This document shows positions 1 through 62,383 of a DNA stretch of 64,000 nucleotides, piece by piece. The position numbers and the translations under genes were made by a program. The first letter of the stretch is position 1; each line of letters starts with the position of its first letter. The DNA is from Candidatus Magasanikiibacteriota bacterium (GTDB lineage Bacteria; Patescibacteriota; Patescibacteriia; Magasanikbacterales; UBA922), in the NCBI GenBank assembly GCA_016207245.1, contig JACQQA010000012.1:5722-69721 (forward strand), in the 5' to 3' direction. The notes below the pieces were generated by a model. It did not search any database. It was not told the origin of the DNA and saw only the letters and a program-made list of their open reading frames with translations.

Positions 1-2763
1 TGTGCCACCAGCAAATATTCTAGCAGACGGATTGCTGGAAGACAAAGCAACTTCTACCTGACCGCCGGCTGTGCCGACTGTGAGAGGATTGGCGCTCGCG
101 CCGCTGATTACTTCGGTGACCTGATTCTTGGTTGTTTGACCAGTACCAGTCACATCATTAGCAGTGTTTACGTCAATTTGGTGCGTGCCAGCTGTCGCGC
201 CGCCAGCAATGTTAGCGTGGATTTCCACGAGCAATTTTTTGCCGGCTTTGACAACAAATTGGTCATCGCCGCTCAAATTCCAAGTATAATCCTCGTCGTC
301 ACCGGCATCACTGTCAGAACCAGCGACAACTTCGCTTAAAGCGACCATAGTACCTGAACCGTTGTTGCTATCCCCATCCTTATCCACCCACAGACGAATA
401 TTCTGCAAATCAATTGATTTCGCGGTTGTCACCACGTTAGTGGCAATAAACTGAGAAATCTTGATATCTTCGGTGGAAGCGGAAGCATCCAACATCACTT
501 TGCTAAACAAGACATCAGTAGTTCCCGGAGCGTACGTTTTGGCTGCCGGAGTTGACAGAGTGGTCACTGTCAAAGAAGCGGTCTGCACTGTCTTGGTATT
601 AGCAGTTACCAAGGCATTAGGAGTAGCATAAGGAGTGCCGGTGCCTAAAGTGATATCCAATGAGCTGTTGACACCTCTCGCTATAAAGTTTGCAGTGTTA
701 CGCATATCAATAGACACCGAGATAGTATCGCCAGCCGCCGGAGTAGTATCAATCGTACCTTTCAAAGTCAAGACATTATCACCTGGCTGCAAAGTAAAGG
801 TATCGGTGGAAGTGGCATAGCCGGGAGATGCCGCGCCAACGCCGTCAACTCCACCAATCACCGCCTTACCAGCGGCATCATACAAGACCAAACTATCCAA
901 ACCGGTTGGTACGACTGTGCCGGTGGTAGCAATCCTGAAAACCAAAGTCCTTACGTCAATCGGCTCGCCAACGACGTTGAAATTCCAGGAAGCCAATTCA
1001 ACACCAGTCGCGTTCTTTGGAACATTACCGGCTGGAACATTGTTCACTTTAGTAACATTCAATTTACCTTGTGAAACTGTGATAGTGTTTGTCATCGCAG
1101 TCGCGCTATCAGTCGGAGTAATATACACTCCGTTGGTAACATCTTTGACAGCGGCATGAGTGGCATACTGCAAATCAAGATTGATCGTGCGGCCGGAACC
1201 AGCGGTTAAATCAGCATAAACGTCATATGTGCGATCATAACCCTTGTCAAGAATACAATCGTCTCCGCACGCGGAAAGGTCAAAGTTAACATATTTGCCA
1301 ACCATTGACGCGCTCGCAAGCGTGACATTGTTGTATTTCAACTTGAAACTTGCAATGTCGGCATCAGCCACAGTACCAGAATTATAAAGAGTCAATTTTT
1401 CCATCTGAATCTTCTTAGCATCCGAACCAGTGGTACCGTTGGTCAACTTAACGCTGGCTACCAAGACGTTGGTAGCGCCAACCTGCTTGGTAACTGAACC
1501 AACTGCTGAACCCTCGGCAAATGTCGCGCTAGATAAAGTTAAACTCTCATTGGTAGTCAAAGCATTACCTTCAACCGGCAAACCAGAAACTGTACCAGCG
1601 CCAACCAGAGTAACAGAAGTAAGAGACAATTTCGGAACATTACCGGCAACGAATGAAGTGCTTGAACCATCAGCGGCGTCCATGTTGCCTACCAAAGTAT
1701 AGGTCTTGCTGGTGCCGGCAGGAATAGTGATATTCTCAGTGAAAGTCACCTCATGGTCAGAGTTCAATGTTTTACCAGAATCATTTAAGAAATTACCCTC
1801 TGGTGTCAAAACATTAAGTGTTGAGAAATCACCATCGGTTGCTGGTGAATTAGTGCGTTTTACCTTGAATGAATCAATGGTAACATCCGCATCGCCTGCC
1901 TTAAATACAACTTTGGTAAACGGCACGCGTGAAGCGCCGGCCATCGCATAACCACTTGCTGGGGTATCCGCGGCCAAACTCACGGTCAAACTGCCAGCTA
2001 CGGTTGTACCGCCGCCAGTTGTTCCGGTGTCACCCGTCGTTTCGCTGGCTTCTACTTGACCAGCATCTTCAGTCACGCTCGCGGCAGTAACGGTAGTATC
2101 AGATACTTCTAAAGCGTCAACAACGCTCGCTGCCGGCATCTGGACATACTTTGCCACAAAAGCTGGCAAAGAGCCGTCAACCTCATGCAAAGCACCGCCT
2201 TCTACTTTGTAAGTAACTGTGCCTTTCTTCACCAACATGCCTTCGTGCGGTTTGGTGCCGTCAACTTCTCCGCTTACTTCATCGTAGGTATCAAAATAGA
2301 TATCCGGAAGATCACGGACCATTTTTGCCCAATTATTTCCGTATAAAGCTTTGGCCGCGGCCTCGCTGGAAATTTTCTTTACATCGCTATTCGGTAATAC
2401 GGCATAAACATTCGGGGAAATAACGGTCTTGACGAGCAATGAACCAGGCAGATAACTGACGCCGCCGCCTGATGGATAAGCCGCCACGCATGTGTTATCA
2501 ATCGTCACAACTCCTGAAAAGTCCTCATACCAAGTATGATAAACTTCGGAGTTGAAGAAATACATTCTTTCCATGTCAGCATTGACATAATAAACGGCGG
2601 AATTGTCGGGAACCTTAAACAGATCTCCGGCTTCCAATTCCGGGCAATCAGCCGCGACAGCGACGAGCGGTACCAAAGCGGACACGCCCACGCTCCACAG
2701 AATTGTCATGACAACGACGGACACGGTAAAGACTTTTTTACCTATTTTTAATAAGTCTGTCAT
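1..2763 (-). CDS. Very large secreted cell-surface protein, N-terminal ~920 aa present, runs off window start. Not in the ORF track because no stop codon lies in the window.
   Basis: Manual minus-strand translation from ATG at 2761-2763 (MTDLLKIGKKVFTVSVVVMTILWSVGVSALVPLVAVAADCPELEAGDLFKV...) gives an uninterrupted frame to position 1. It has a signal-peptide-like hydrophobic N-terminus, T/S/V/G-rich repetitive beta-rich composition and no enzymatic motifs. Confidence 0.55.
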   Translation of the reverse strand, partial: MTDLLKIGKKVFTVSVVVMTILWSVGVSALVPLVAVAADCPELEAGDLFKVPDNSAVYYVNADMERMYFFNSEVYHTWYEDFSGVVTIDNTCVAAYPSGGGVSYLPGSLLVKTVISPNVYAVLPNSDVKKISSEAAAKALYGNNWAKMVRDLPDIYFDTYDEVSGEVDGTKPHEGMLVKKGTVTYKVEGGALHEVDGSLPAFVAKYVQMPAASVVDALEVSDTTVTAASVTEDAGQVEASETTGDTGTTGGGTTVAGSLTVSLAADTPASGYAMAGASRVPFTKVVFKAGDADVTIDSFKVKRTNSPATDGDFSTLNVLTPEGNFLNDSGKTLNSDHEVTFTENITIPAGTSKTYTLVGNMDAADGSSTSFVAGNVPKLSLTSVTLVGAGTVSGLPVEGNALTTNESLTLSSATFAEGSAVGSVTKQVGATNVLVASVKLTNGTTGSDAKKIQMEKLTLYNSGTVADADIASFKLKYNNVTLASASMVGKYVNFDLSACGDDCILDKGYDRTYDVYADLTAGSGRTINLDLQYATHAAVKDVTNGVYITPTDSATAMTNTITVSQGKLNVTKVNNVPAGNVPKNATGVELASWNFNVVGEPIDVRTLVFRIATTGTVVPTGLDSLVLYDAAGKAVIGGVDGVGAASPGYATSTDTFTLQPGDNVLTLKGTIDTTPAAGDTISVSIDMRNTANFIARGVNSSLDITLGTGTPYATPNALVTANTKTVQTASLTVTTLSTPAAKTYAPGTTDVLFSKVMLDASASTEDIKISQFIATNVVTTAKSIDLQNIRLWVDKDGDSNNGSGTMVALSEVVAGSDSDAGDDEDYTWNLSGDDQFVVKAGKKLLVEIHANIAGGATAGTHQIDVNTANDVTGTGQTTKNQVTEVISGASANPLTVGTAGGQVEVALSSSNPSARIFAGGT

Positions 2764-3103
2764 AATGAATTTATTCACTTATTCCGTAGCGCCCCGACGT
2801 TACGTCGGGATCAACGAAATAAGCAATTTGGTTAAATGTATCTATCGACTCTCGCGAGCCTCGACCTATTTGATAGACACTGCCCTTTTCTCCGCCTTGC
2901 TTTGCCAGCCTTGGGCTGTGGGCGGAGCCAACTGTATGGCTAAATAATTTCCCCCTAGCGGGGAATCACCGGCTTTGATTTATCTAAATTTATCAGAACC
3001 GCTGATCCCCCGCCATGGCGGGACTGACCATACAATTTTTAAAGAGCATTGTTAATAATTTATCCAGCACCTTCCCGGAATACCTCGCAAGAAGGTGCTG
3101 GAT

Positions 3104-4363
3104 TTATTTAATTTCGGTTTTAATCGTTGTTGTTGTGGCAGGAATAGGAGTATTATTTAAAACCCCGCTGTTTACCGCGTCCACGGCTTTTTTAACTTCA
3201 ACCACTGTTCTCTCCGCCTGTTCCGCTGCTTGAGTGGCATCTTTCACTTTACTTATAGCCTCCAACAAATGATTGCCTTCAACCAAAACTTTTGCCTCCT
3301 CTAATGTTTTCTGGCTTTCCTGTCCTTGCGCGATTGCTTGTTTGCTTACATCGCCCAATACATCTTTAATCGTGGAAGTCGGCAAAACAATCGGAGTAGT
3401 GGAACTTACAACAACTTGAATTGAAGAAGTTGAAATCAAAATCGTTGAAGAAACACTGACCACAACATCAGAAGGCAAGTTGTTGGAAGTGACCGGGGCT
3501 GTTTCAAGCACTTTCACCGTATCCTCCGCCTTGCTTTTCATATCACCGGTGTCTTGCATGGCTACATCAATCTGCGTTTTAACAATTGTTTTAGCATCTT
3601 CATCAGAAACAACTCCGCTGTCATCTTTATTTTTTTGCACAACCGTTTGCACAATATCCAAACTGCTATCTTTGACGATTTGCTTTGTCCCGGCGACATC
3701 AACATCTTTTCCGCCCTGTTCCGCCGCCGCAGTTAATGTCTGATTGATATCTTTCGCGGTTTCTTGCATGCCTTTTACAACTTCAACAATTTTTTCCGGC
3801 TCGGTTTCCACCACTTCTTTAATTACTTCATTGGCAGTTTGAATTGACTTTTCCAATTTTACCATTGCTTCCGCCGCTCTTTGCGGAGCATCATCCTCTT
3901 TGTTTTCAACCACTTTTTTTACTTCTTTGGCTCGGCGAGTGGCAAATTCCAAATGCATCTGCGCTTGTTGGTCTTTCGCGCCGGCGACTGATGTTACCAA
4001 TTCTTGAGTTTTTTCCGCAGCCAACTTCACCCCATAACAAACCTCGCCCGGCAAACAATTTTGCGTCGCGCCCACGCTGGCAATCCAACCGCTGGTCGCT
4101 ATCGCGCCGACTAAGATAAAAATCGCCGTTGGACGCACCACGGAATAAGCTAACCGACCCGGCACAAATATATTAATCGCCTGCCAGACATAGTCAAACC
4201 TAAAACGCGGTTTGTCTTCGGAAACCGTATTATTAATTTGCGACATTAATTTCTTCCGATTTTGCGTAACCCAAGCCGAATCTGGATTTAACCGATCATT
4301 TTTTTCTTTGACTGTTTTTAATTGTGCCTTGAGAATTCGCGGCATAGCCAGTGAATTATTCAA
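3104..4363 (-). CDS. Membrane-anchored protein co-transcribed with the ECF sigma factor; putative anti-sigma factor
   Basis: 419-aa ORF overlapping the sigma factor stop by 8 bp. It has a short cytoplasmic N-terminus, a single TM helix (AIFILVGAIATSGWIASV) and a long K/E/V/T-rich extracytoplasmic region. The anti-sigma role is inferred from its position only. Confidence 0.4.
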   Translation of the reverse strand: MNNSLAMPRILKAQLKTVKEKNDRLNPDSAWVTQNRKKLMSQINNTVSEDKPRFRFDYVWQAINIFVPGRLAYSVVRPTAIFILVGAIATSGWIASVGATQNCLPGEVCYGVKLAAEKTQELVTSVAGAKDQQAQMHLEFATRRAKEVKKVVENKEDDAPQRAAEAMVKLEKSIQTANEVIKEVVETEPEKIVEVVKGMQETAKDINQTLTAAAEQGGKDVDVAGTKQIVKDSSLDIVQTVVQKNKDDSGVVSDEDAKTIVKTQIDVAMQDTGDMKSKAEDTVKVLETAPVTSNNLPSDVVVSVSSTILISTSSIQVVVSSTTPIVLPTSTIKDVLGDVSKQAIAQGQESQKTLEEAKVLVEGNHLLEAISKVKDATQAAEQAERTVVEVKKAVDAVNSGVLNNTPIPATTTTIKTEIK

Positions 4364-54279: not shown

Positions 54280-55500
54280 TTACGCGTTTGGCACCAAGTG
54301 CCTCATAATATCATCAACCGTAACCACGCCCAGCAATTTTTGCTTATTGTCAACCACCGCGACTGACAGCAAATTATATTTTGTCATAATCGCCGCGACT
54401 TCCGTCACTTTTTGCGTCACATTCACAACCGGCGTGCGCCGCGAACGTTTCATAATCGATTTGATGGTCTGCGCGGGTTCGGCGATTATCAAACGCCGCA
54501 AAGACGCTACGCCTAAATAATGTTTTTTATCATCCACCACATAGACAAAGTGTATCGCCCGGTGTTGATGTGAATCCCGCTTTATTTTCTCCGCCACCTC
54601 TGACACCGTGGTGTGTGGCTGGGCGGCGATAAATTCCGTGGTCATCAAACCGCCGGCCTCGTCTTCATCATAAGACAGAATTTTTTTTACCTTGCCGATG
54701 TCTTTTTGCGGCGGCAGTTTTTCTATAATCTCCTGCGATTCGCGTGAGGGCAAGAGCTGAATCAAATCCACCAGTTCATCCATTGACATTTTTTCCAAAA
54801 TCACGGCCGCTCGTTCCGAACCCAAATGCTCAATCAGCATTTTTTGAATCCGCGGGCTGACTTCTTCCATAACTTTCGCGGCAGTTGATTTATCCAATGA
54901 ACGCAACAGCGAACTTCCTTGTTTAATGTTCAGCTTTTCCACGATGTTGGCGATATCAGCCGGATGCAGGCGGACCAGATCTTCCCGGCCGGTGCTTAAC
55001 TGCAATCTATCACCGATTAAATGCGCCTGATTCCACTCCAAGAGATGGGGCTTAAGCCAACCATCCGCCGGCGTCCGCAAACCAACGCGACGCAAAAGCC
55101 CGCTGGTGCTGACATCAATCGCCAAAAGGCAAAGATGATTTTGCACCGGTCCGAATTGCAGATCATTCACGCGCACCACTCTGATTCCGGCCAAGTCAAC
55201 AATTTGCCGGTCAACGATGTTTTTCCGCAAAAACAAAATACCCTCATTCGGCTGAACGCTTTCCGCTTCCGCGACCGAGGTGTTTAACACCAAACCATCA
55301 TGGCTCCAGGCCGCGACTTTATCAGCGCTGATATAGATATCTTGTTTTTTCTTGCGATTGCGCACCATAAGACCGACTACGGAAGGAAATTTTTTTCCTT
55401 TAGCCAGTTCAATCGCCACATCTTTCAATTTTCCGACTGGCTCGTCATTCTTGTCCTGCACCGGCGCGTTGATTATAGTGCTAAGAAAAAACATACTCAA
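54280..55500 (-). CDS. Soluble MgtE-N plus tandem CBS-domain protein (no transporter TM domain), possibly preceded by a PRC-barrel-like segment
   Basis: MgtE N-terminal helical region (DELVDLIQLLPSRESQEIIEKLP) followed by two CBS domains (ending ...GVVTVDDIMRHL). The ORF ends 6 bp before the NRAMP gene. No hydrophobic helices. Confidence 0.6.
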   Translation of the reverse strand: MSMFFLSTIINAPVQDKNDEPVGKLKDVAIELAKGKKFPSVVGLMVRNRKKKQDIYISADKVAAWSHDGLVLNTSVAEAESVQPNEGILFLRKNIVDRQIVDLAGIRVVRVNDLQFGPVQNHLCLLAIDVSTSGLLRRVGLRTPADGWLKPHLLEWNQAHLIGDRLQLSTGREDLVRLHPADIANIVEKLNIKQGSSLLRSLDKSTAAKVMEEVSPRIQKMLIEHLGSERAAVILEKMSMDELVDLIQLLPSRESQEIIEKLPPQKDIGKVKKILSYDEDEAGGLMTTEFIAAQPHTTVSEVAEKIKRDSHQHRAIHFVYVVDDKKHYLGVASLRRLIIAEPAQTIKSIMKRSRRTPVVNVTQKVTEVAAIMTKYNLLSVAVVDNKQKLLGVVTVDDIMRHLVPNA

Positions 55501-55575
55501 TTAAAAGTGTGCAAGTTAATAGGTGTATAAGTTTATAAGTTACAAAACTTACCCACTTATACACTCATATACCTA

Positions 55576-55968
55576 CTAACTTGACTTTGCCAAATAAGCT
55601 TCTAATATAATCATAGCAGACTTTTCATCTCTACTTGCCCCCACTACTCCACTATCCGTCCTATCCGCTTGCACGGAAGTGAAACGCTCGTCAACAAAAT
55701 CTACGGAAATTTTTATTTCTTTTTTCAATTCATCAGCAAATTTTCTAACCCGCCTGGTATTATCATTCTCTTTTCCATCCAACCCCAGCGGCAATCCCAC
55801 CACCAGTTTATCAATTTTTTCTTTTTTTATCAATTCCGCAACTTGGTCTTTTAATCTTCCGTTCCTTTGATCTCCAACCACTCCAAACGGCAAAACAACC
55901 TTAAGCGCTGTGTCCACCCACGCTAAGCCAATTTTCTTTGATCCATAATCCACTCCTAGTATGTTCAT
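55576..55968 (-). CDS. ruvX: Holliday junction resolvase-like RuvX/YqgF
   Basis: Starts MNILGVDYGSKKIGLAWVD (YqgF signature). The tracked ORF extends to 56046; the ATG at 55968 overlaps the map stop by 4 bp. Confidence 0.75.
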   Translation of the reverse strand: MNILGVDYGSKKIGLAWVDTALKVVLPFGVVGDQRNGRLKDQVAELIKKEKIDKLVVGLPLGLDGKENDNTRRVRKFADELKKEIKISVDFVDERFTSVQADRTDSGVVGASRDEKSAMIILEAYLAKSS

Positions 55969-56795
55969 AATTTTTCTGATGGCCGGCGAGTTACAACTAT
56001 CGGTTCTTTTTCTGTAATCACGATGGTATGTTCCTGGTGTGCGCACAAGCTGTTGTCCGCGGTTTTGACACTCCAGCCGTCATCGGCAGTAACAATATGC
56101 CAATCTCCCATTGTTATCATCGGCTCAATCGCGATAACTACACCGGGCTGTAAGACCCATTTCTCACCCTCTTTATCATAGTAATTCGGCACCCGCGGTT
56201 CTTCATGCACCGCGTGGCCAACGCCATGGCCGACTAAATCTCGCACAATGCCGTAACCCTGCGGCTCAACATATTTCTGAATCGTCCGACCTATGTCCGC
56301 CACGGTATTTCCAACTACACATTGTTTAATTCCGATTTCCAGCGCTTTTCTCGTCACATTCAACAACTGCTTCGTCCTATCCGGAATCTTCCCCACCGCC
56401 AATGTAATCGCCGTATCAGTAAAATATCCTCGCTCAGATTTGATATTGGATATTGGATATTTGATATTCTTTGTGGGATATTCCATTCCAATATCAATAC
56501 TAAAAATATCACCGTCTTTCAAAACTTTATTTTTGCTGGCAATACCATGCACCAGCTCATCATTCACGCACGCACAAATTGTGGTTGGAAACGGCGGGTC
56601 ATTTTTTTTGCCCTTATAACCCTTAAAAGCCGGTTTTCCACCAGCTTCGCGAATCAAACGCTCGGCTTCTTGATCGATTTCCAAAGCGCAAACACCAGGC
56701 TTAACCATTTTGCTTAATTTTTCTAAAATCTCACCCAAAATCAACCCGCCCTCTTGGATGAATTTGATTTCGTCGGTGGTTTTAGTGTAGGACAT
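55965..56795 (-). CDS. map: Methionine aminopeptidase type I
   Basis: Metal-binding residues in DGDIFSIDIG, GHGVGHAVHEEP and ITEKEP. Contains a ~15-aa in-frame insertion (PTKNIKYPISNIKSE) encoded by AATATC-type repeats at 56442-56469. Confidence 0.85.
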   Translation of the reverse strand: MSYTKTTDEIKFIQEGGLILGEILEKLSKMVKPGVCALEIDQEAERLIREAGGKPAFKGYKGKKNDPPFPTTICACVNDELVHGIASKNKVLKDGDIFSIDIGMEYPTKNIKYPISNIKSERGYFTDTAITLAVGKIPDRTKQLLNVTRKALEIGIKQCVVGNTVADIGRTIQKYVEPQGYGIVRDLVGHGVGHAVHEEPRVPNYYDKEGEKWVLQPGVVIAIEPMITMGDWHIVTADDGWSVKTADNSLCAHQEHTIVITEKEPIVVTRRPSEKL

Positions 56796-56830
56796 AAAAA
56801 GTTTAAAAGTGATCAGTCGGTCAGCGTTTA

Positions 56831-58042
56831 TTAGATTGAGTGGGACAAAAAATCTCTGATATTTTCTTGACGAACACCTTTATACCCGCCCTTAACCAAC
56901 AACTCGTCCATAGAAACTACTATTTTAGGATAATTATCGCGAATCGCCAGTAAATTGCCAAACTCTCTTTCTTTATTTTCTTCAGTAATCAAATAAGCCA
57001 CTTGGACATATAATCTTTGTCCGGCTTTTTCACAAACAAAGTCAACCTCCCGCCCGCCTTCCTGCTGTCCAACGGTTACTGTGTATCCGGCTACCAAAAG
57101 ATGCAAAAAAACTAAATTTTCCAGCACCTTATTAATATCCGGCTGATGGTAGCTAACTATCGCGTGGCGCAAGCCTAAATCGCCAAAATAATATTTCTCG
57201 TTGATTTCAAAAACCTTTTTTCCCTGAATATCCGAACGCCGCACTTGAAAGATAAAAAATGCTTGAGCCAGAAAAGAAAGATAATCTAAAACCACACCTG
57301 GAGAAATTTTAATTTTTTGAGATTTCAAAAAATCGCTGATTTTCTTGGCCGACACCAAACTACCCAGATTGTCAGCAAGATATTCCACTAGCCGCCCTAA
57401 AAACGCCAAATTGCGAATTTTGTGCACTGACACGACATCTTTAAACAAAATGGTGTTGTAAATATTACGCAGATAATCATAAACCACAGCGTCTTCTTTG
57501 GCCAGATGCATCAAATAAGGCAAACCGCCATATTTAATATATTGAATAAAAGCGTCATGGCTTTCTTTTAACTTATGGAATTCTAAAAATTCGGCGTAAG
57601 ATAAGCCAAACACCGGAATTTCCACTGCCCGACCGCTTAGATGGGTGGCTAATTCGCTGGAGAGAAAATAAGCGTTGCTACCTGTGCAATACAAATCATA
57701 ACCACCTTTGGCTTGCAAACCGCGCAAGGCCTTTTCAAATTTTTCTATTTCTTGTATCTCATCAATAAAAACATAATGTTTGCCGCTTTGACTGCGGGTT
57801 TTCTGCTTGATGTAAGCGAGCAAATCCCGATAATTTTTTATTCCATCAAATTCGTTTAATTCTTTATTGATGTAAATGAGATTGGGATTTTTATGGAGTC
57901 CCTTGATAATATCCATGATCTGAAACAGCAGATAGCTTTTGCCCACTCGTCTCTGACCAATAATAACCTTAATAACCTCTTTATCAATAAAGGGCGTGAT
58001 CCGTTCCAGATAGATTTTGCGTGGAATGTAGGTTTTAATCAT
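56831..58042 (-). CDS. AAA+ ATPase of the AAA_14/DUF4143 family
   Basis: Walker A IIGQRRVGKSYLL near the N-terminus, with a C-terminal DUF4143-like region; 403 aa. Confidence 0.65.
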   Translation of the reverse strand: MIKTYIPRKIYLERITPFIDKEVIKVIIGQRRVGKSYLLFQIMDIIKGLHKNPNLIYINKELNEFDGIKNYRDLLAYIKQKTRSQSGKHYVFIDEIQEIEKFEKALRGLQAKGGYDLYCTGSNAYFLSSELATHLSGRAVEIPVFGLSYAEFLEFHKLKESHDAFIQYIKYGGLPYLMHLAKEDAVVYDYLRNIYNTILFKDVVSVHKIRNLAFLGRLVEYLADNLGSLVSAKKISDFLKSQKIKISPGVVLDYLSFLAQAFFIFQVRRSDIQGKKVFEINEKYYFGDLGLRHAIVSYHQPDINKVLENLVFLHLLVAGYTVTVGQQEGGREVDFVCEKAGQRLYVQVAYLITEENKEREFGNLLAIRDNYPKIVVSMDELLVKGGYKGVRQENIRDFLSHSI

Positions 58043-58172
58043 ACTTAAAACTTTTTAGAAATTTGTTAATGTTTTAAGTATACTGAAATGATTAATTACT
58101 GTCAAGCGCCGGCTGTTTTCCTTACCCAGGCAATGTGGGGGCGGCGGTTTCAGTTAGAAATTTTAAAAAATA

Positions 58173-58225
58173 AAAACTGCGGTCGCCTCTGGTAAACCAG
58201 AGAGGACCGCAGTGGGGTTAACTGT
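58173..58225 (-). terminator. Rho-independent terminator of the radical-SAM-like gene
   Basis: Minus strand CTGCGGTCCTCTCTGGtttaCCAGAGGCGACCGCAG followed by TTTTTATTTTTT. Confidence 0.6.
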
Positions 58226-58287
58226 CTTAAGTATAACAAGCCCGCAGATGCTTGTCAAGTGCGTCAAATGCCTTGCGTGGATAAGCA

Positions 58288-58326
58288 AAATTTTTATGAG
58301 TTTGATTTCGTCGGTGGTTTTGATAT
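58288..58326 (-). pseudogene. Duplicated 5-prime fragment of map (MAYIKTTDEIKLI...)
   Basis: Minus-strand ATGGCTTATATCAAAACCACCGACGAAATCAAACTCATA matches the real map start (ATGTCCTACACTAAAACCACCGACGAAATCAAATTCATC), including a 20-nt identical core (56764-56783 vs 58295-58314). Downstream it reads into the terminator with no further map similarity. Confidence 0.55.
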
Positions 58327-58387
58327 AAGCCATATGCGGCTATTTTACCAAAACTAACCGATAAGTTCAAATTTGCTGGATAAAAAT

Positions 58388-59398
58388 TTAATTGTCTTTG
58401 CCCTTACATTCACACCTCAGTCCTTCAAATTCTTTTAAATCTTGAGTGCCATTATACCTTATAATCGCCTCAGCCACCTTTTTATCACATTTTCCGCAAT
58501 TATGAGTAAACCTATCACTCGATAAATTTTCATCATACATTCCCACCCAAATTGAATTTGGCTGGTATTCTTTCAATTTCGTTATCTTCTTAACAATCTC
58601 TATAACATTCCACAAAGTAGGAAGCTGATATTTTCCTTCTTCAAATTGTTTCTCAATCCCTGTGCCTTTGGGTATAAACATCGGTTTTATAGCAAGAAAG
58701 GCTTCTATGCCTCTGGCATTCGCGACTTCATAAGCATATCTTGCAGTTTCCACTGTATCTTCAATCACTTCCGATTCCGTCAAAGTGGGAGAACCAATCA
58801 AAATGTAAGATCTCATCCTTGAACCTGTTTCCTGGCAAATATCAGCGAAGTGTTCGTATCCAGTCTTAGTAAGGCCTTTATGCAAAACGATGTTTCTAAC
58901 TTTATCATTCGCGCTTTCCAAACCTATTGCTAATTCAAGTTTCTGATCACTTCTCAACAATTTTTGTGAATCTATTACTTTTTCTAAAGTCAAATAATCT
59001 ACTCTTGTTTCAACCATCACGTGTTTAACTTCCGGAAGTTTAGCCGCCTCCTTAAACAAGTACGCTCTTGATTTTGATGACATTTCGTTATCATTATAAA
59101 ATGATCCGGCGGTGGGAAAATCCAATTTTTTTACCCCTTTCAAATCAACGGTTTTTATACCATCCTGATATTGTTTTACAATATTTTCGTGTATGACACT
59201 ACAGCTGGCATTATTATCAAATCCGCACATGGTGCATTTATTATAAGCGCAGGGAGGTGTCCTAAATATGAACGTTAGCATCTTTGTTTCTTCGCCATAA
59301 ATATTAGCCGGCCCGCGCGCGATAAATGCCGGCTTGTTGTCCAAGCTTGTTTCTTTGGTTAACTCTGGAGCGCCACCCTTTTTGTTTTCAGTTTTCAT
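58388..59398 (-). CDS. Elp3-like radical SAM superfamily protein (TIGR01210-like, archaeal-type)
   Basis: Cx4Cx2C cluster CAYNKCTMCG as in the Elp3-type radical SAM motif, a TIM-barrel-like core with GLES, and a C-terminal Cys cluster HNCGKCDKK; 336 aa. Confidence 0.45.
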   Translation of the reverse strand: MKTENKKGGAPELTKETSLDNKPAFIARGPANIYGEETKMLTFIFRTPPCAYNKCTMCGFDNNASCSVIHENIVKQYQDGIKTVDLKGVKKLDFPTAGSFYNDNEMSSKSRAYLFKEAAKLPEVKHVMVETRVDYLTLEKVIDSQKLLRSDQKLELAIGLESANDKVRNIVLHKGLTKTGYEHFADICQETGSRMRSYILIGSPTLTESEVIEDTVETARYAYEVANARGIEAFLAIKPMFIPKGTGIEKQFEEGKYQLPTLWNVIEIVKKITKLKEYQPNSIWVGMYDENLSSDRFTHNCGKCDKKVAEAIIRYNGTQDLKEFEGLRCECKGKDN

Positions 59399-59555
59399 AG
59401 ATTTGTTCTTATTGAACCACCAAAAATCGTTTTATTTATATCTCCTATAACAATGCATTATACTTGATTTTGATAAATAAATCAATGGTTTTATAATATA
59501 AACACATATAAATTAAGCTAAAATTAACCTATTTTATATACTGCTGTCAAAAAAC

Positions 59556-59584
59556 TTGACAAATGGTGGTTTTTGTGGTATAAT
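59556..59584 (+). promoter_or_regulatory. Consensus sigma70 promoter TTGACA-N17-TGTGGTATAAT upstream of the TrmB-like gene
   Basis: TTGACA 59556-59561, 17-nt spacer ending TTTTTGTGG, TATAAT 59579-59584, ATG at 59593. Same architecture as the promoter at 7776-7804. Confidence 0.6.
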
Positions 59585-59592
59585 GGTATTAT

Positions 59593-60396
59593 ATGTTTTT
59601 AGAAGAGCACCTCAAAAAATTAGGCCTAACAGAAAAAGAGGCTAAAATATATTTAGCCGCTTTGGAGTTGGGCGCGGATACGATTCAAAATATCGCTAAA
59701 AAGGCCGAACTGAAAAGACCGACTGTGTATGTGTTAGTAGATGAATTAATCCGAAAGGGCCTCCTTTCACGCAAGCCGATGCCGAGAGGCGATATTTTTA
59801 TTCCGGAGAATCCGGAAAATCTAAAAAATATTTTAAAAGAAAAGGAGCTGGCTTTAAGCGACGCTCTCCCCTTTTTGCGGGCTATTTATAATGTGGAAAA
59901 AGGCAAACCGCAAGTGCAAGTTTATGAGGGCATAGATAATATGCGCCGCATTTATTTAGATATGATTTGGAAAAGTAAAACCGAGATTTTATTTTTCTCG
60001 TCAATCAAAAAAATCTACGAAGCGATACCGGATCTGCTGGAATCTTGGCTGGCAAATTTCAACGCGCGAAAAGACAAGCCGCTAACCGCCCGAGAATTCA
60101 TCAACCCTGATCCGACTGATATTGAGTACGGTTTGAAAGTCATTAAAACCGGATTCGCGCAAGTGCGAGTAATTCCAAAGGAATTTAAACACTTTTTTGT
60201 GGGAACAGATAATGCTATTTTTGAAGATAAACTGATAGTAGTCTCTTTTGAACAAAAATTATTCACCACTATCATCCAAAGCCGAGCCATTGCCGACACG
60301 ATGCGAGCGTTATATGAACTAGCGTGGGAAAAAGGAACACCGGTTGAAGAATTTGTTAAACAACATCCGAAAATAAAACCGAAAAACTCCCGGTAG
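59593..60396 (+). CDS. TrmB-family (archaeal-type sugar-responsive) transcriptional regulator
   Basis: N-terminal winged HTH LTEKEAKIYLAALELGADTIQNIAKKAELKRPTVYVLVDELIRKGLL typical of TrmB; a C-terminal effector-binding-like domain; 267 aa. Confidence 0.65.
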   Translation: MFLEEHLKKLGLTEKEAKIYLAALELGADTIQNIAKKAELKRPTVYVLVDELIRKGLLSRKPMPRGDIFIPENPENLKNILKEKELALSDALPFLRAIYNVEKGKPQVQVYEGIDNMRRIYLDMIWKSKTEILFFSSIKKIYEAIPDLLESWLANFNARKDKPLTAREFINPDPTDIEYGLKVIKTGFAQVRVIPKEFKHFFVGTDNAIFEDKLIVVSFEQKLFTTIIQSRAIADTMRALYELAWEKGTPVEEFVKQHPKIKPKNSR

Positions 60397-60447
60397 GGGA
60401 ATTTTACAATAGAACAATTTAACAACCTGTCTGCCGGCGAGGCAGAT

Positions 60448-61110
60448 TCAACAATTCAACACTTTCTCTATCTCTCTCTCAACATCCCCGATCTCCGGTT
60501 CGCCATCAACTCTTTTCAAAACACCCAAATTATTATAATAATCCAAAATCGGTTTAATCGCCTGATTGCCCTGCTCCACAATCCGTTTTTTGATTGTTTC
60601 CGGATTATCATCGGCGCGGACGACTAATTTACCGTTACACTCTGGACAATCCATTTTTAATTCGTTTTCCGGCGAATAAGGCAGGATGAAACCACAAATC
60701 GGACACACCTTGCGTTTGGTCAAACGGTTATAACTTGATTCATCAGATAACACGACTTCAATTACCAATACTTCATTTTCTAATTTCTTGCCAACAAAAT
60801 ATTCCTGATATTTTTTTGCTTGTTCAACATTTCTAATCGCGCCGTCCAAAACAACGCCTTTATCAGTATCAAAATATCTGTCCATTTCCGCGAAAGCAAG
60901 TTTATAAATCAATTCATCAGCGACTAATCTGCCCGCTTTCATTTCCGCCAGCTTTTTTTTATCTTCCGGATCAGCGTTCCGGTCATTATCCAGCGCGCGC
61001 AACAAATCGCCGGTGGAAATATGGCCGTAATTGTATTTTTTAGCGATTTTTTTGGCTTGCGTGCCCTTGCCGCTGCCGGGAACGCCCATCAGGATGATGA
61101 TTTTTTTCAT
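60448..61110 (-). CDS. adk: Adenylate kinase (long form with zinc-binding lid)
   Basis: P-loop GVPGSGKGTQA and lid Cys pairs CPICG...CPECNG. The likely start is MKKIIILMG at 61110; the tracked ORF extends to 61170. Confidence 0.85.
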   Translation of the reverse strand: MKKIIILMGVPGSGKGTQAKKIAKKYNYGHISTGDLLRALDNDRNADPEDKKKLAEMKAGRLVADELIYKLAFAEMDRYFDTDKGVVLDGAIRNVEQAKKYQEYFVGKKLENEVLVIEVVLSDESSYNRLTKRKVCPICGFILPYSPENELKMDCPECNGKLVVRADDNPETIKKRIVEQGNQAIKPILDYYNNLGVLKRVDGEPEIGDVEREIEKVLNC

Positions 61111-61111
61111 A

Positions 61112-62383
61112 TCACATCCGATCATACTCATACACTTCCAACTGCGCGTCAATTTGTTTGGCGGTTTCAATCGCGACCGAGACGACGATTAAGAGCGAGG
61201 TGCCGCCGATGGCGAGCGATTGGGTGCCGGTGAATGCCCGAAGTAATAAAGGCAGAATGGCAATAAGAGCGAGAAATAACGCGCCGACAAATATCAATCT
61301 GCTCATGGTGTGCGCTAAATATTTTTCGGTTTCTTTGCCCGGACGAATGCCCGGGATAAAACCGCCTTGGCGCTGTAAATTCTCGGCGATTTTTTGCGGA
61401 TGGAAAATTACCGCGGTGTAAAAATATGTGAAACCGAATACCAAGACAAAATACATGCCCGCGTAAACCGCTTGATTATTGAAAAATCCCACCACTTGGC
61501 GCGCGATTGACGCTGACAAGCCGGTGCCATTGACAAAAAACTGCGCGATCATTGACGGGAACAAAATGATTGAAATCGCGAAAATGATTGGAATCACGCC
61601 GGCCATATTCACGCGCAATGGCAAATGGGTGTTGGCCCCGCCATACACGCGATTGCCGCGAATTTGCTTAGCGTAACTCACCGGCACATTTCTCTGTCCT
61701 TCGCTGATCACCACCACGCCGACAACTGTCGCCACCGCGATTGCCGCGAATAAAACATAAGTATAAAGATCAGCCGGTGTGTAGTTTACCGCCGCTTTCT
61801 GCACCGCTTGCGGCAAGCCCGCCATAATGCCGGCAAAAATCAATAATGAAACGCCGTTGCCGATCTTGCGTTCGGTAATCAGTTCGCCAATCCACATTAA
61901 AAAAACCGTGCCCGCGGTAATCGTTAGCATCATTGCCAATAAATGATACATGTTCAAATCCGGCAAGATCCGATACTGCGACCGGTTTAATAATTGAATC
62001 ATGCCGTAGGCCTGCAATAATGCCAATGGTATCGTCGCCCAACGAGTATACATGTTAATCTTTTGCTGGCCCGCCTCGCCTTCTTTTGATAATTCTTCCA
62101 AACTCGGAACCACCATTGCCAAAAGCTGAAAGATAATGGAAGCGGTGATATACGGCGCCACGCCCAACATGATTACGGAAAAATTTTCCATGGTGCCGCC
62201 GGAAAACACATTCAATAATCCCAAAATCTGATTGCCGGCTAAAAACTTACGCAAATTTTCCGCGTCAATACCCGGCACTGGAATATGAGCCGCCAGCCGG
62301 ACAATAACCAGCATCGCCAAAACAAAAAGAACGCTGTTGCGCAGACTTTTTATTTTCCAAATTTGTCTGAATTTATCCCACAT
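61112..62383 (-). CDS. secY: Preprotein translocase subunit SecY
   Basis: 423 aa with 10 TM helices; conserved plug/TM2 region and a C-terminal cytoplasmic loop. Position between rplO and adk is canonical. Confidence 0.9.
   Translation of the reverse strand: MWDKFRQIWKIKSLRNSVLFVLAMLVIVRLAAHIPVPGIDAENLRKFLAGNQILGLLNVFSGGTMENFSVIMLGVAPYITASIIFQLLAMVVPSLEELSKEGEAGQQKINMYTRWATIPLALLQAYGMIQLLNRSQYRILPDLNMYHLLAMMLTITAGTVFLMWIGELITERKIGNGVSLLIFAGIMAGLPQAVQKAAVNYTPADLYTYVLFAAIAVATVVGVVVISEGQRNVPVSYAKQIRGNRVYGGANTHLPLRVNMAGVIPIIFAISIILFPSMIAQFFVNGTGLSASIARQVVGFFNNQAVYAGMYFVLVFGFTYFYTAVIFHPQKIAENLQRQGGFIPGIRPGKETEKYLAHTMSRLIFVGALFLALIAILPLLLRAFTGTQSLAIGGTSLLIVVSVAIETAKQIDAQLEVYEYDRM

Follow-up and report, generated by a model that had tools for sequence, protein, structure and literature searches.

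Introduction

Why should a genome carry the start of a housekeeping gene twice, about 1.5 kb apart? We asked this of a stretch of 64,000 nucleotides (nt), hereafter the window, from contig JACQQA010000012.1 (assembly GCA_016207245.1) of Candidatus Magasanikbacteria, a member of the Candidate Phyla Radiation (CPR; Patescibacteria). On its minus strand, the gene map, for methionine aminopeptidase, is preceded by a truncated second copy of its own 5' end, and a gene for an AAA+ ATPase with a DUF4143 domain lies between the two. We compared this locus with a set of others, labelled L001–L107; all of the data are metagenome assemblies. Our reading, to which we give a probability of roughly 55%, is that the 5' end of map is a recombination hotspot for single-gene cassettes that have no integrase, bring their own promoter and enter by homology with a copy of the gene end that the cassette itself carries.

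The start of map is duplicated

A repeat search of the window returned a direct repeat of 39 nt at plus-strand positions 56758–56796 and 58296–58334, with 33 of the 39 positions identical (85%). The preliminary description had rightly seen a copy of the map start about 1.5 kb upstream of the real one; its ATG lies at 58333 rather than at 58326, 1,538 nt upstream of the true map ATG at 56795 (both on the minus strand). The translations of the two copies, MAYIKTTDEIKLI and MSYTKTTDEIKFI, match those given earlier, and the identical core, AAAACCACCGACGAAATCAAA, is 21 nt long, not 20. Could this core be a generic repeat? When the window was scanned with up to three mismatches allowed, only these two places were found, and none of 100 dinucleotide-preserving shuffles contained it, so that within the window it is not a generic repeat. 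The two copies do bracket the ATPase gene, if not exactly, as had been claimed: about 250 nt upstream of the gene, with a second near-consensus promoter and a strong terminator hairpin, are also enclosed, and instead of the ATPase alone, at least two cassettes are present between them.

The same site in relatives

In Candidatus Magasanikbacteria RIFCSPLOWO2_12_FULL_43_12 (L001), whose map product is 85% identical in amino acids (aa), the gene order is secY-adk-map-ruvX-MgtE-like-Nramp with a single map start. Six contigs with an 85%-identical map (L093–L098) likewise have adk and map adjacent and an intact start, which we regard as the empty site, and the more distant L102–L105 show the same empty arrangement. 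The ancestral secY-adk-map order with an unduplicated map start, proposed beforehand for related genomes, is therefore seen in L001 and L093–L098. When the adk-map spacer of L001 was aligned with the window, its right ~45 nt matched the DNA directly upstream of the truncated copy and its left part matched the DNA just after adk. Since the truncated copy, which we call the left repeat (LR), is thus flanked by the native map promoter, it is the original start, interrupted after codon 13, and everything between it and the intact map is inserted. The native promoter, whose −10 box (58342–58347) ends 8 nt before ATG 58333, now drives the truncated start only. The copy that opens the intact gene is called the right repeat (RR).

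Other relatives are occupied, and some are stacked. In L099 (GCA_016212615.1; map 86% identical in aa), the native promoter is followed by copy A of the map start, an ATPase cassette, copy B, a promoter (P1) with a hairpin and a gene for an NYN-domain protein (Pfam E 1e-20), and copy C, which starts the intact map. Copy A (47 nt) is joined to GCGC-TTGACA, and copy B (39 nt) to AAAATTTTACTTATCCAC; the truncation point of LR in the window, CTCATA/AAAATTTT, is identical to the junction at copy B. The window carries the same two cassettes in the reverse order, a remnant of the NYN cassette (E2) and then the ATPase cassette (E1), whereas L099 has a third map-start copy between them; the window has no such copy between the E2 remnant and E1. 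The NYN gene itself is gone from the window and follows the matching leader in L099, L106 and L107. In L106 and L107, the NYN cassette sits at the map start, 5–6 nt upstream of the intact map, and decayed remnants of an ATPase cassette follow LR (L106 retains the 5' untranslated region (UTR) and ATGATTAAAAC). Finally, L087 has an ATPase of a second lineage (84% aa identity) between map-start copies; its contig ends lie within both copies, and an exact repeat of ~36 nt is inferred from these ends with k = 31. In three unrelated cassettes (the window/L099 ATPase, the L087 ATPase and NYN), the map copy joins the cassette tail at the ATG with a precision of 1–2 nt.

The cassettes are more alike than the genomes that hold them. 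Between the window and L099, E1 with its adjoining map copy is 93.2% identical in DNA over 1,353 nt and the E2 leader 90.7% over 172 nt, compared with 84% for secY, 81% for adk, 83% for map, 69% for the MgtE-like/Nramp genes and 79% for recO. The cassettes (91–93% against 69–84% for core genes) were therefore shared more recently than the genomes diverged, and the ATPase cassette, whose product is 95.8% identical in aa between the two, is by this measure a horizontal gain. ATPases found at a mazG site (L006 and L007, 88–89%) are nearer to that of the window than is the one at the map site of L087 (84%). The intact map has homologues 83–88% identical in Candidatus Magasanikbacteria.

These empty and occupied sites support the proposed insertion into the 5' end of map with a duplicated gene start, and the duplication is confirmed as a true integration scar. 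We consider it highly improbable that the arrangement is an assembly artefact in which strain variants, or a small plasmid and the chromosome, were joined into a chimera. Every assembly here is metagenomic and some contigs end inside repeats (L002 and L087), as an artefact would lead one to expect; on the other hand, the arrangement is present in an 89-kb contig of an NCBI metagenome-assembled genome and over the whole locus in L089, the ATPase-map junction recurs in the shorter contigs L090–L092, and this repetition in L089–L092 excludes a one-off assembly error. In addition, analogous structures come from other projects and assemblers, and the 21-nt exact core is below the usual final k-mers, so that it would not produce a false join.

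The origin of the repeat copies

Each copy of the map start is a composite, its left part tracking its left neighbour and its right part tracking its right neighbour. The right part of LR (…CTCATCCAAGAAG; CAAGAAG) is identical wherever it abuts an ATPase cassette (L099, L106 and L107), and the hosts' own map reads TTAGAAGG or CAAGCCGG at that position. Because this part is constant despite the differing host map, the copies act like attL/attR hybrids of host and element-borne sequence. The first 12 nt of RR (ATGTCCTACACT) are unlike LR and resemble the copy after the matching cassette in L099 and L087.

We then tabulated the differences between copies by codon position in eight coding repeat pairs. 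They number 11, 7 and 37 at positions 1, 2 and 3 (37 of 55 at the third), with 31 synonymous and 17 non-synonymous codons. This third-position bias departs from uniformity (P 3e-7) and also from the third-position share of ~45% that we estimated for neutral drift with one copy selected and the other drifting freely (P 7e-4). The bias indicates that the truncated copies resemble functional alleles of other lineages and not decayed local duplicates; one copy of each repeat is thus probably derived from another lineage. Each copy in L059 is followed by a sequence that forms a terminator with the same GCTTTTGTGTT at its end, which suggests that the duplicated segment may reach into non-coding DNA that has diverged past detection. 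Such divergence of non-coding DNA may explain why similarity often stops at a start or stop codon.

The same data bear on whether map was simply duplicated in place, as a tandem duplication or a long target-site duplication that later diverged, with a cassette devoid of map sequence landing between the copies or creating them. Exact or near-exact repeats at L045, L037, L052 and L087 (~36 nt, estimated) would fit such an origin, and a synonymous bias could arise if both tandem copies had been functional for a time. We nevertheless hold it to be very unlikely. In addition to the third-position bias, two genomes with 83% identity in map share the cassette and its adjoining copy at 93%, the right part of LR stays constant next to the ATPase cassette, and truncation falls at the same 39–47 nt in several genomes; moreover, duplication would be needed anew at each of many unrelated loci, every time next to such cargo.

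Flanking duplications across the ATPase family

Are related ATPase genes elsewhere also flanked by duplicated gene ends? For the 75 ATPase loci with enough flank, the 800 nt before the open reading frame (ORF) were searched against the 600 nt after it for direct repeats of at least 40 bits, and 68 ORFs of similar size from the same loci served as controls. Such repeats flank 17 of the 75 ATPase genes and 1 of the 68 controls (Fisher P 7e-5). The proposed check, whether DUF4143 ATPase genes elsewhere have duplicated gene starts beside them, thus gave a positive answer, the excess being significant. The one control ORF to pass 40 bits does so through a low-complexity genome repeat; below the threshold, the highest-scoring controls are an unexplained 31-mer in L027 and the template/variable repeats (TR/VR) of a diversity-generating retroelement in L078. 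After near-identical loci had been collapsed and low-complexity cases removed, 13 of 57 cassette clusters of these CPR relatives retained flanking repeats, against 1–2 of the 68 controls; GTTTTGAGTT-type low-complexity repeats in L061, L063 and L071 were left out as generic genome repeats.

The repeats are 22–185 nt long and often diverged, exact or near-exact ones including those of L045 (185/185), L037 (59/62) and L052 (50/51). Some repeat the 5' end of the gene downstream (map; the ParA-like gene of L052, promoter included; the L024 gene for a secreted protein; the GT2 glycosyltransferase gene of L042; the hemerythrin-like gene of L034), others the 3' end of an adjacent gene (L037, L055 and L059), and others adjacent non-coding DNA, which in L045 is the promoter region of another ATPase gene and in L040 a terminator region. 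A further array of three copies, L042, is built on the glycosyltransferase gene start and has two cargos: an ATPase that faces the opposite way and an ORF of 279 aa without a Pfam match. Two short contigs, L034 (1,746 nt, with an exact terminal overlap of 55 nt) and L009 (1,761 nt, overlap of 65 nt), contain only a cassette, a host promoter and a 5' gene fragment, and may be circles or tandem forms. The gene fragment of L034 is hemerythrin-like (MPKYIWAEKYSVGVAEIDK*). No flanking duplication was found for the cassettes at infB and mazG sites (L004–L007 and L088).

Some candidates were set aside. L013 at first looked like an integration into a tRNA gene; ARAGORN predicted no tRNA, and the 19-mer in question occurs four times in the locus, which leaves it doubtful. 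The repeats of L043 and L011 are paralogous zinc-ribbon domains on either side of the ATPase and are not clear duplications. In these two subgroups, zinc-ribbon proteins (FYxK..P.P..CP.CR) border the ATPase cassette, with a C-terminal part on one side and an N-terminal start on the other; the site could be a further recurrent target, or the proteins a pair of tandem paralogues. In L045 (1245–3714), the exact 185-nt repeat ends at the first start-codon base of the other ATPase, a distantly related AAA_14-type protein, and in L078 (plus strand, 2500–3696), the diversity-generating retroelement, with the reverse transcriptase motif IGNLTSQ and TR/VR-like flanking repeats, lies beside the ATPase cassette.

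The cargo

The ATPase of the window combines an AAA_14 P-loop domain (Pfam E 4e-30) with DUF4143 (E 1e-15), both above the gathering score, and matches the PADLOC profile PDC-S01 (PDLC04787) over residues 1–401 (E 3.9e-143). Its C-terminal domain is PD-(D/E)XK-like: E332, D334 and Q347 are invariant in 38 homologues, and the expected ExK motif is QxA. By Foldseek, the N-terminal part of its AlphaFold model (predicted local distance difference test, pLDDT, 75) resembles AAA+ proteins of the STAND/ORC/MuB/RFC type and the C-terminal part nucleases of the Can2/Card1 PD-(D/E)XK type; the matches are generic AAA+ proteins and CARF-associated nucleases, with no recombinases among them. By sequence, the ATPase had no match in the PDB. 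About 8,000 homologues were found at E < 1e-10, the best 120 of which are 64–88% identical and mostly annotated as Patescibacteria; a search for cassette relatives on viral contigs returned none.

PDC-S01, defined as AAA_14 plus DUF4143 (COG1373) with an ATPase and PD-(D/E)XK architecture, reportedly ranks fourth in frequency among the defence candidates of prokaryotes as a whole and has undergone multiple inter-domain transfers (PMC12988326). It is a very abundant single-gene candidate and unvalidated (PMC12988326, PMC13356809). DUF4143 is listed in the PD-(D/E)XK superfamily (PMC3424549), and COG1373 is among the genes common to several gut genera (PMC10782964). Our ATPase agrees with PDC-S01 as published in its full-length profile match and domain architecture. 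The cassette structure and gene-end duplications go beyond the published abundance and inter-domain transfer, and neither feature was described for PDC-S01 in the literature that we found; the defence role is a candidate one.

Profile scans of the ATPase, two adjacent window genes and the tested cassette ORFs of L099 and L042 detected no recombinase domain, so that the integrase or recombinase remnants that it had been proposed to look for were not detected in the cassette and adjacent ORFs tested. Among the precomputed Pfam tags of neighbouring genes, the only recombinase was a Y1 transposase in L100/L101, a site with no map-start duplicate. The cargo, a PDC-S01 ATPase-nuclease and an NYN RNase-like protein, looks like a set of predicted defence or toxin genes and not recombination enzymes.

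Could the ATPase nevertheless insert its own gene? As an autonomous element, its AAA+ module with a PD-(D/E)XK-like domain would cut either the target or the element and promote homology-guided insertion, a new homing- or transposase-like activity. The strong enrichment of the flanking-repeat signature around one gene family, the union of an ORC/MuB/STAND-like AAA+ module with a nuclease fold in one protein, the very wide spread of the family (55–88% identity across CPR lineages), the inter-domain transfers of PDC-S01 (PMC12988326) and the presence of COG1373 among inter-genus shared genes (PMC10782964) would all accord with such an activity. However, the NYN cassettes (L099, L106 and L107) and the 279-aa-ORF cassette (L042) have the same flanking copies, so the pattern is not ATPase-specific and the ATPase gene probably does not encode the means of insertion. 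The altered nuclease motif holds for the whole subfamily, the cassettes have neither terminal inverted repeats nor a fixed-length target duplication, and the Foldseek matches are not recombinases. We therefore judge an autonomous ATPase decidedly unlikely.

How the cassettes may insert

If the cassettes enter by homology, the following course can be envisaged. A cassette would carry a 39–47-nt copy of the map start and be transferred as a small circle or a repeat-ended fragment; its copy would recombine with the chromosomal map start, inserting the cassette, leaving the native promoter and the first 13–16 codons stranded upstream as LR and rebuilding an intact map downstream, at RR, to be read through from the cassette promoter. 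Repeated events would produce tandem arrays, and recombination between copies would lead to excision, as a circle with one copy, or to reordering. The process would be ordinary homologous recombination, a Campbell-type or 'ends-in' insertion-duplication on a short gene-end segment from another lineage, and only those integrations that keep one intact copy of the gene would survive; this selection would account for the repeats being gene ends in every case. The variety of targets, the range of repeat lengths and the absence of a recombinase in the loci favour the host's homologous recombination.

Several observations weigh against this reading. About three quarters of the ATPase loci have no flanking repeat. 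The homology is short (39–47 nt, with ~9–21 nt common to all copies) and marginal for RecA, and all inferable crossovers fit a single stretch of 9 nt (AAAACCACC), as would equally be expected of a site-specific recombinase. Furthermore, three unrelated tails meet the ATG within 1–2 nt without detectable homology to the native upstream DNA, which random capture does not predict, although rapid non-coding divergence, as suggested by the terminators of L059, could hide such homology. The model leaves unexplained how a cassette first captures a fragment of a new target, and the candidate circular forms come from contig ends, not from reads. The result on the tails is from a comparison that examined them as decayed versions of the native map upstream region; they were not significantly similar to it (P ≥ 0.1), which leaves that idea unsupported, and fast spacer divergence could mask homology.

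Owing to the short homology, the single crossover stretch and the tails that end at the ATG, a site-specific recombinase acting in trans stays a serious rival, and we regard it as a real, if less probable, possibility. The cassettes would then be integrase-less, att-flanked satellites moved by a recombinase of the tyrosine or serine type, its gene lying elsewhere in the genome or on a larger element that also has the map start as its target, and the 39–47-nt block would be the identity segment of attP. The attL/attR logic of the hybrid copies, the confinement of the crossovers to one short core and the tandem accretion of cassettes would follow naturally, as would an identity block that ends at the ATG in three unrelated cassettes, as it does in elements at tRNA genes and other gene ends. 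On the other hand, no such enzyme was found in or beside any of ~100 loci except for the Y1 transposase of L100/L101, whose site has no duplicate, and no cognate integrase-bearing element was seen at the map start in at least 20 related loci, whole genomes not having been searched. Near-identical cargo occurs at unrelated targets (map, glycosyltransferase, ParA-like and hemerythrin-like genes, other 3' ends, and near infB and mazG), the repeats vary from 22 to 185 nt so that each target would require its own recombinase, and no dyad symmetry is apparent in the map segment on inspection.

Relation to known elements

Integrative elements that bring a replacement gene end are well known: phage 21 and e14 at icd, islands at tRNA 3' ends and streptococcal integrative mobilizable elements at the 5' or 3' ends of housekeeping genes. 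The cassettes described here resemble them in their repeats of the target gene end, the rebuilt intact gene, the empty sites in relatives and the tandem accretion. They differ in that they lack an integrase and excisionase, measure only ~0.8–1.5 kb, hold one gene and have many unrelated targets. Cis-mobilizable elements (CIMEs) are integrase-less satellites bounded by att sites, and our cassettes share with them the att-like bounding repeats, the absence of recombination genes and the arrays with other elements at one site. Unlike CIMEs, they have no cognate integrase-bearing map-start element in the loci examined, and their targets vary widely.

A parallel to the proposed route is the Campbell-type insertion-duplication that non-replicating circles undergo in insertion-duplication mutagenesis, together with the translocatable units of IS26. 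As in Campbell insertion, a single crossover on a short carried segment would duplicate that segment, and the gene would stay intact only if its end is included; the repeats here are indeed gene ends or the non-coding DNA beside them. In contrast with that mutagenesis and with the IS26 units, the events described here are natural, recurrent and apparently spread horizontally, the homology, 20–185 nt, is diverged and no insertion sequence (IS) is involved.

The cassettes are also unlike transposons and IS elements (no transposase, no inverted-repeat ends conserved between loci, repeats of 22–185 nt) and unlike free-standing homing endonuclease genes, which occupy one fixed site without duplication; related cassettes here occur at map, infB, mazG and other sites, with duplications. 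Integron gene cassettes, which include ones encoding defence systems (10.1101/2024.07.02.601686), are comparable in that they are compact single-gene units, often defence-like, that are stacked and separated by a repeated recombination sequence. The present cassettes, however, have their own strong promoter, a repeat that is a housekeeping gene end and no attI or IntI; a search for inverted repeats brought up nothing attC-like at the ends of the cassettes, the repeated unit being non-palindromic coding sequence.

Implications

How a lone gene without a recombinase moves is not explained in the papers that we found. Our results suggest one route, at least in CPR: the gene may travel with a short stretch copied from a conserved gene end, which serves as integration site and keeps an essential gene intact. 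If this is general, diverged duplicated gene ends would be a sequence signature of recent cassettes and new defence genes in genomes without recognisable mobile elements, conserved gene starts such as that of map would be exchange hotspots, and short-homology recombination as a driver of gene flow in reduced, probably naturally competent organisms would become testable. By extension, CPR might exchange defence-type genes as integrase-less units (promoter, gene and gene-end mimic) that insert by homology; in the boldest form, the PDC-S01 ATPase-nuclease would itself stimulate or catalyse the insertion and so be partly self-mobilising. We think this extended proposal improbable; were the boldest form true, a very abundant prokaryotic 'defence candidate' would be, at least in part, a new self-mobilising element.

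Features of the locus

Table 1. Layout of the map region in the window.
Feature	Position	Strand	Basis
secY	61112-62383	-	window gene order
adk	60448-61170	-	window gene order
TrmB-like helix-turn-helix (HTH) gene	59593-60396	+	Pfam/NCBIfam
RaSEA-like radical SAM gene	58388-59398	-	TIGR01210 E 9e-60, just below cutoff
Separate 2-kb insertion, adk terminator to map promoter	58371..60331		alignment with L001/L093 intergenic DNA
Native map promoter: TTGAAC, 17-nt spacer, TG-extended TAAAAT	58335..58370	-	promoter scan and alignment with L001/L093 adk-map spacer
LR, original map start: ATG 58333 and 13 codons	58295..58334	-	repeat search; junction same in L099 copy B
Remnant of NYN cassette (E2)	58163..58294	-	90.7% over 172 nt to L099 5246-5417
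Unassigned spacer between E2 remnant and ATPase cassette	58111..58162	-	contains CCGCCGCCCCCAC
Left end of cassette E1: GCGC, promoter P2, 5' UTR	58043..58110	-	promoter scan; 93%-identity block with L099 begins 58110
ATPase gene, 403 aa	56831-58042	-	Pfam, PADLOC
Tail of cassette E1, ATPase stop to map-start copy	56797..56830	-	homologous, with indels, to L099 tail
RR, start of intact map: ATG 56795	56757..56796	-	repeat search, comparison with L099/L087
Intact map, type I methionine aminopeptidase, 276 aa	55965-56795	-	Pfam Peptidase_M24 E 7e-41
After map: ruvX, MgtE-N/CBS-domain (MgtE-like) gene, Nramp gene, recO	order only	-	window gene order

Upstream of the map promoter, the TrmB-like and radical SAM genes had been proposed as part of the insertion at the 5' end of map. 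They do belong to an insertion, yet to a separate one of 2 kb with no duplication and no flanking repeat found; the block is absent from L001 and L093, and the radical SAM gene is also found upstream of map in L107. The block is an older or independent insertion. The radical SAM assignment itself stands, with a RaSEA-like identity (TIGR01210, below the curated cutoff) fitting better than the Elp3-like one first given (E 0.004). The 3' end of the TrmB-like ORF extends into ancestral intergenic sequence. In L100/L101 (4642–6502; map 74% identical), genes for a CAP-domain protein and a Y1 (IS200/IS605-type) transposase lie between adk and map with no map-start copy, which shows the adk-map spacer to be variable in further ways.

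A −10 box 7–10 nt before the map ATG is also present in the L001, L100, L106 and L107 lineages. So short a distance suggests a leaderless map mRNA, and the left edge of the duplicated segment coincides with the presumed map transcription start.

The 176 nt between LR and the P2-bearing left end of E1 hold P1, a hairpin and a T-run. In the E2 remnant, these are P1 (58258–58230, TTGACA-17-TATACT), the hairpin (58213–58176; 18 bp, ~20 nt after P1, fold −28 kcal/mol, z −6.65) and the T-run, together with a DnaA-box-like TTATCCACG; the 56-aa ORF opened by LR (58163–58333) is probably meaningless. The whole NYN leader (window 58163–58258; L099 5290–5417; L106/L107) consists of a promoter and a hairpin terminator, followed, where it is retained, by the NYN gene, and its stem contains one compensatory change between genomes, from T-A to G-C. 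This leader has the look of an attenuator, or else of a small RNA combined with a toxin-like RNase module. In the spacer between the cassettes, CCGCCGCCCCCAC is similar, by eye only, to left-end sequence of the ATPase cassettes of L004, L106 and L107.

Upstream of the ATPase gene, conservation across homologous loci is limited to ~76 nt with a near-consensus promoter and a 5' UTR motif. In the window, the promoter P2 (58105–58077, TTGACA-17-TATACT) is followed by a 5' UTR with the family-wide motif TATACTTAAAACAT...AAAAAGTTTTAAGT-ATG. Since the E1 tail contains no terminator, transcripts from P2 probably run on into map. The ATPase −10 box and start codon (58036–58088) lie within the span of a 9-nt inverted repeat, ACTTAAAAC...GTTTTAAGT, which is conserved family-wide and present at most ATPase loci; it was considered as an RNA structure and dropped, no stable RNA fold being found, so it may instead serve autoregulation as a DNA operator. 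The P1 promoter of the NYN cassette has TATACTTAA(A/G)A..TTAAC in common with it.

DnaA-box-like sequences recur at cassette edges in the window, in L099 and in the flanks of L008–L010, with TTATCCACG at window 58275–58283 and a perfect TTATCCACA at the flank of L099 copy B. Similarly, GTTATCCACA adjoins the ATPase promoter in L009, which looks circular, and in L010.

An Rfam scan of 55500–60500 returned nothing relevant, and there is no tRNA at the map-start site. Between ruvX and the MgtE-N/CBS-domain gene lies an imperfect palindrome (55505–55582) with 37-nt arms, 70% complementary, and a 4-nt loop; its sole Rfam match is a chance-level miRNA. Within map, a 14-nt tandem repeat (56438–56472) encodes a lineage-variable insert, KNIKYPISNIKSE in the window and SPKSLKSIKSVKTMSE in L001.

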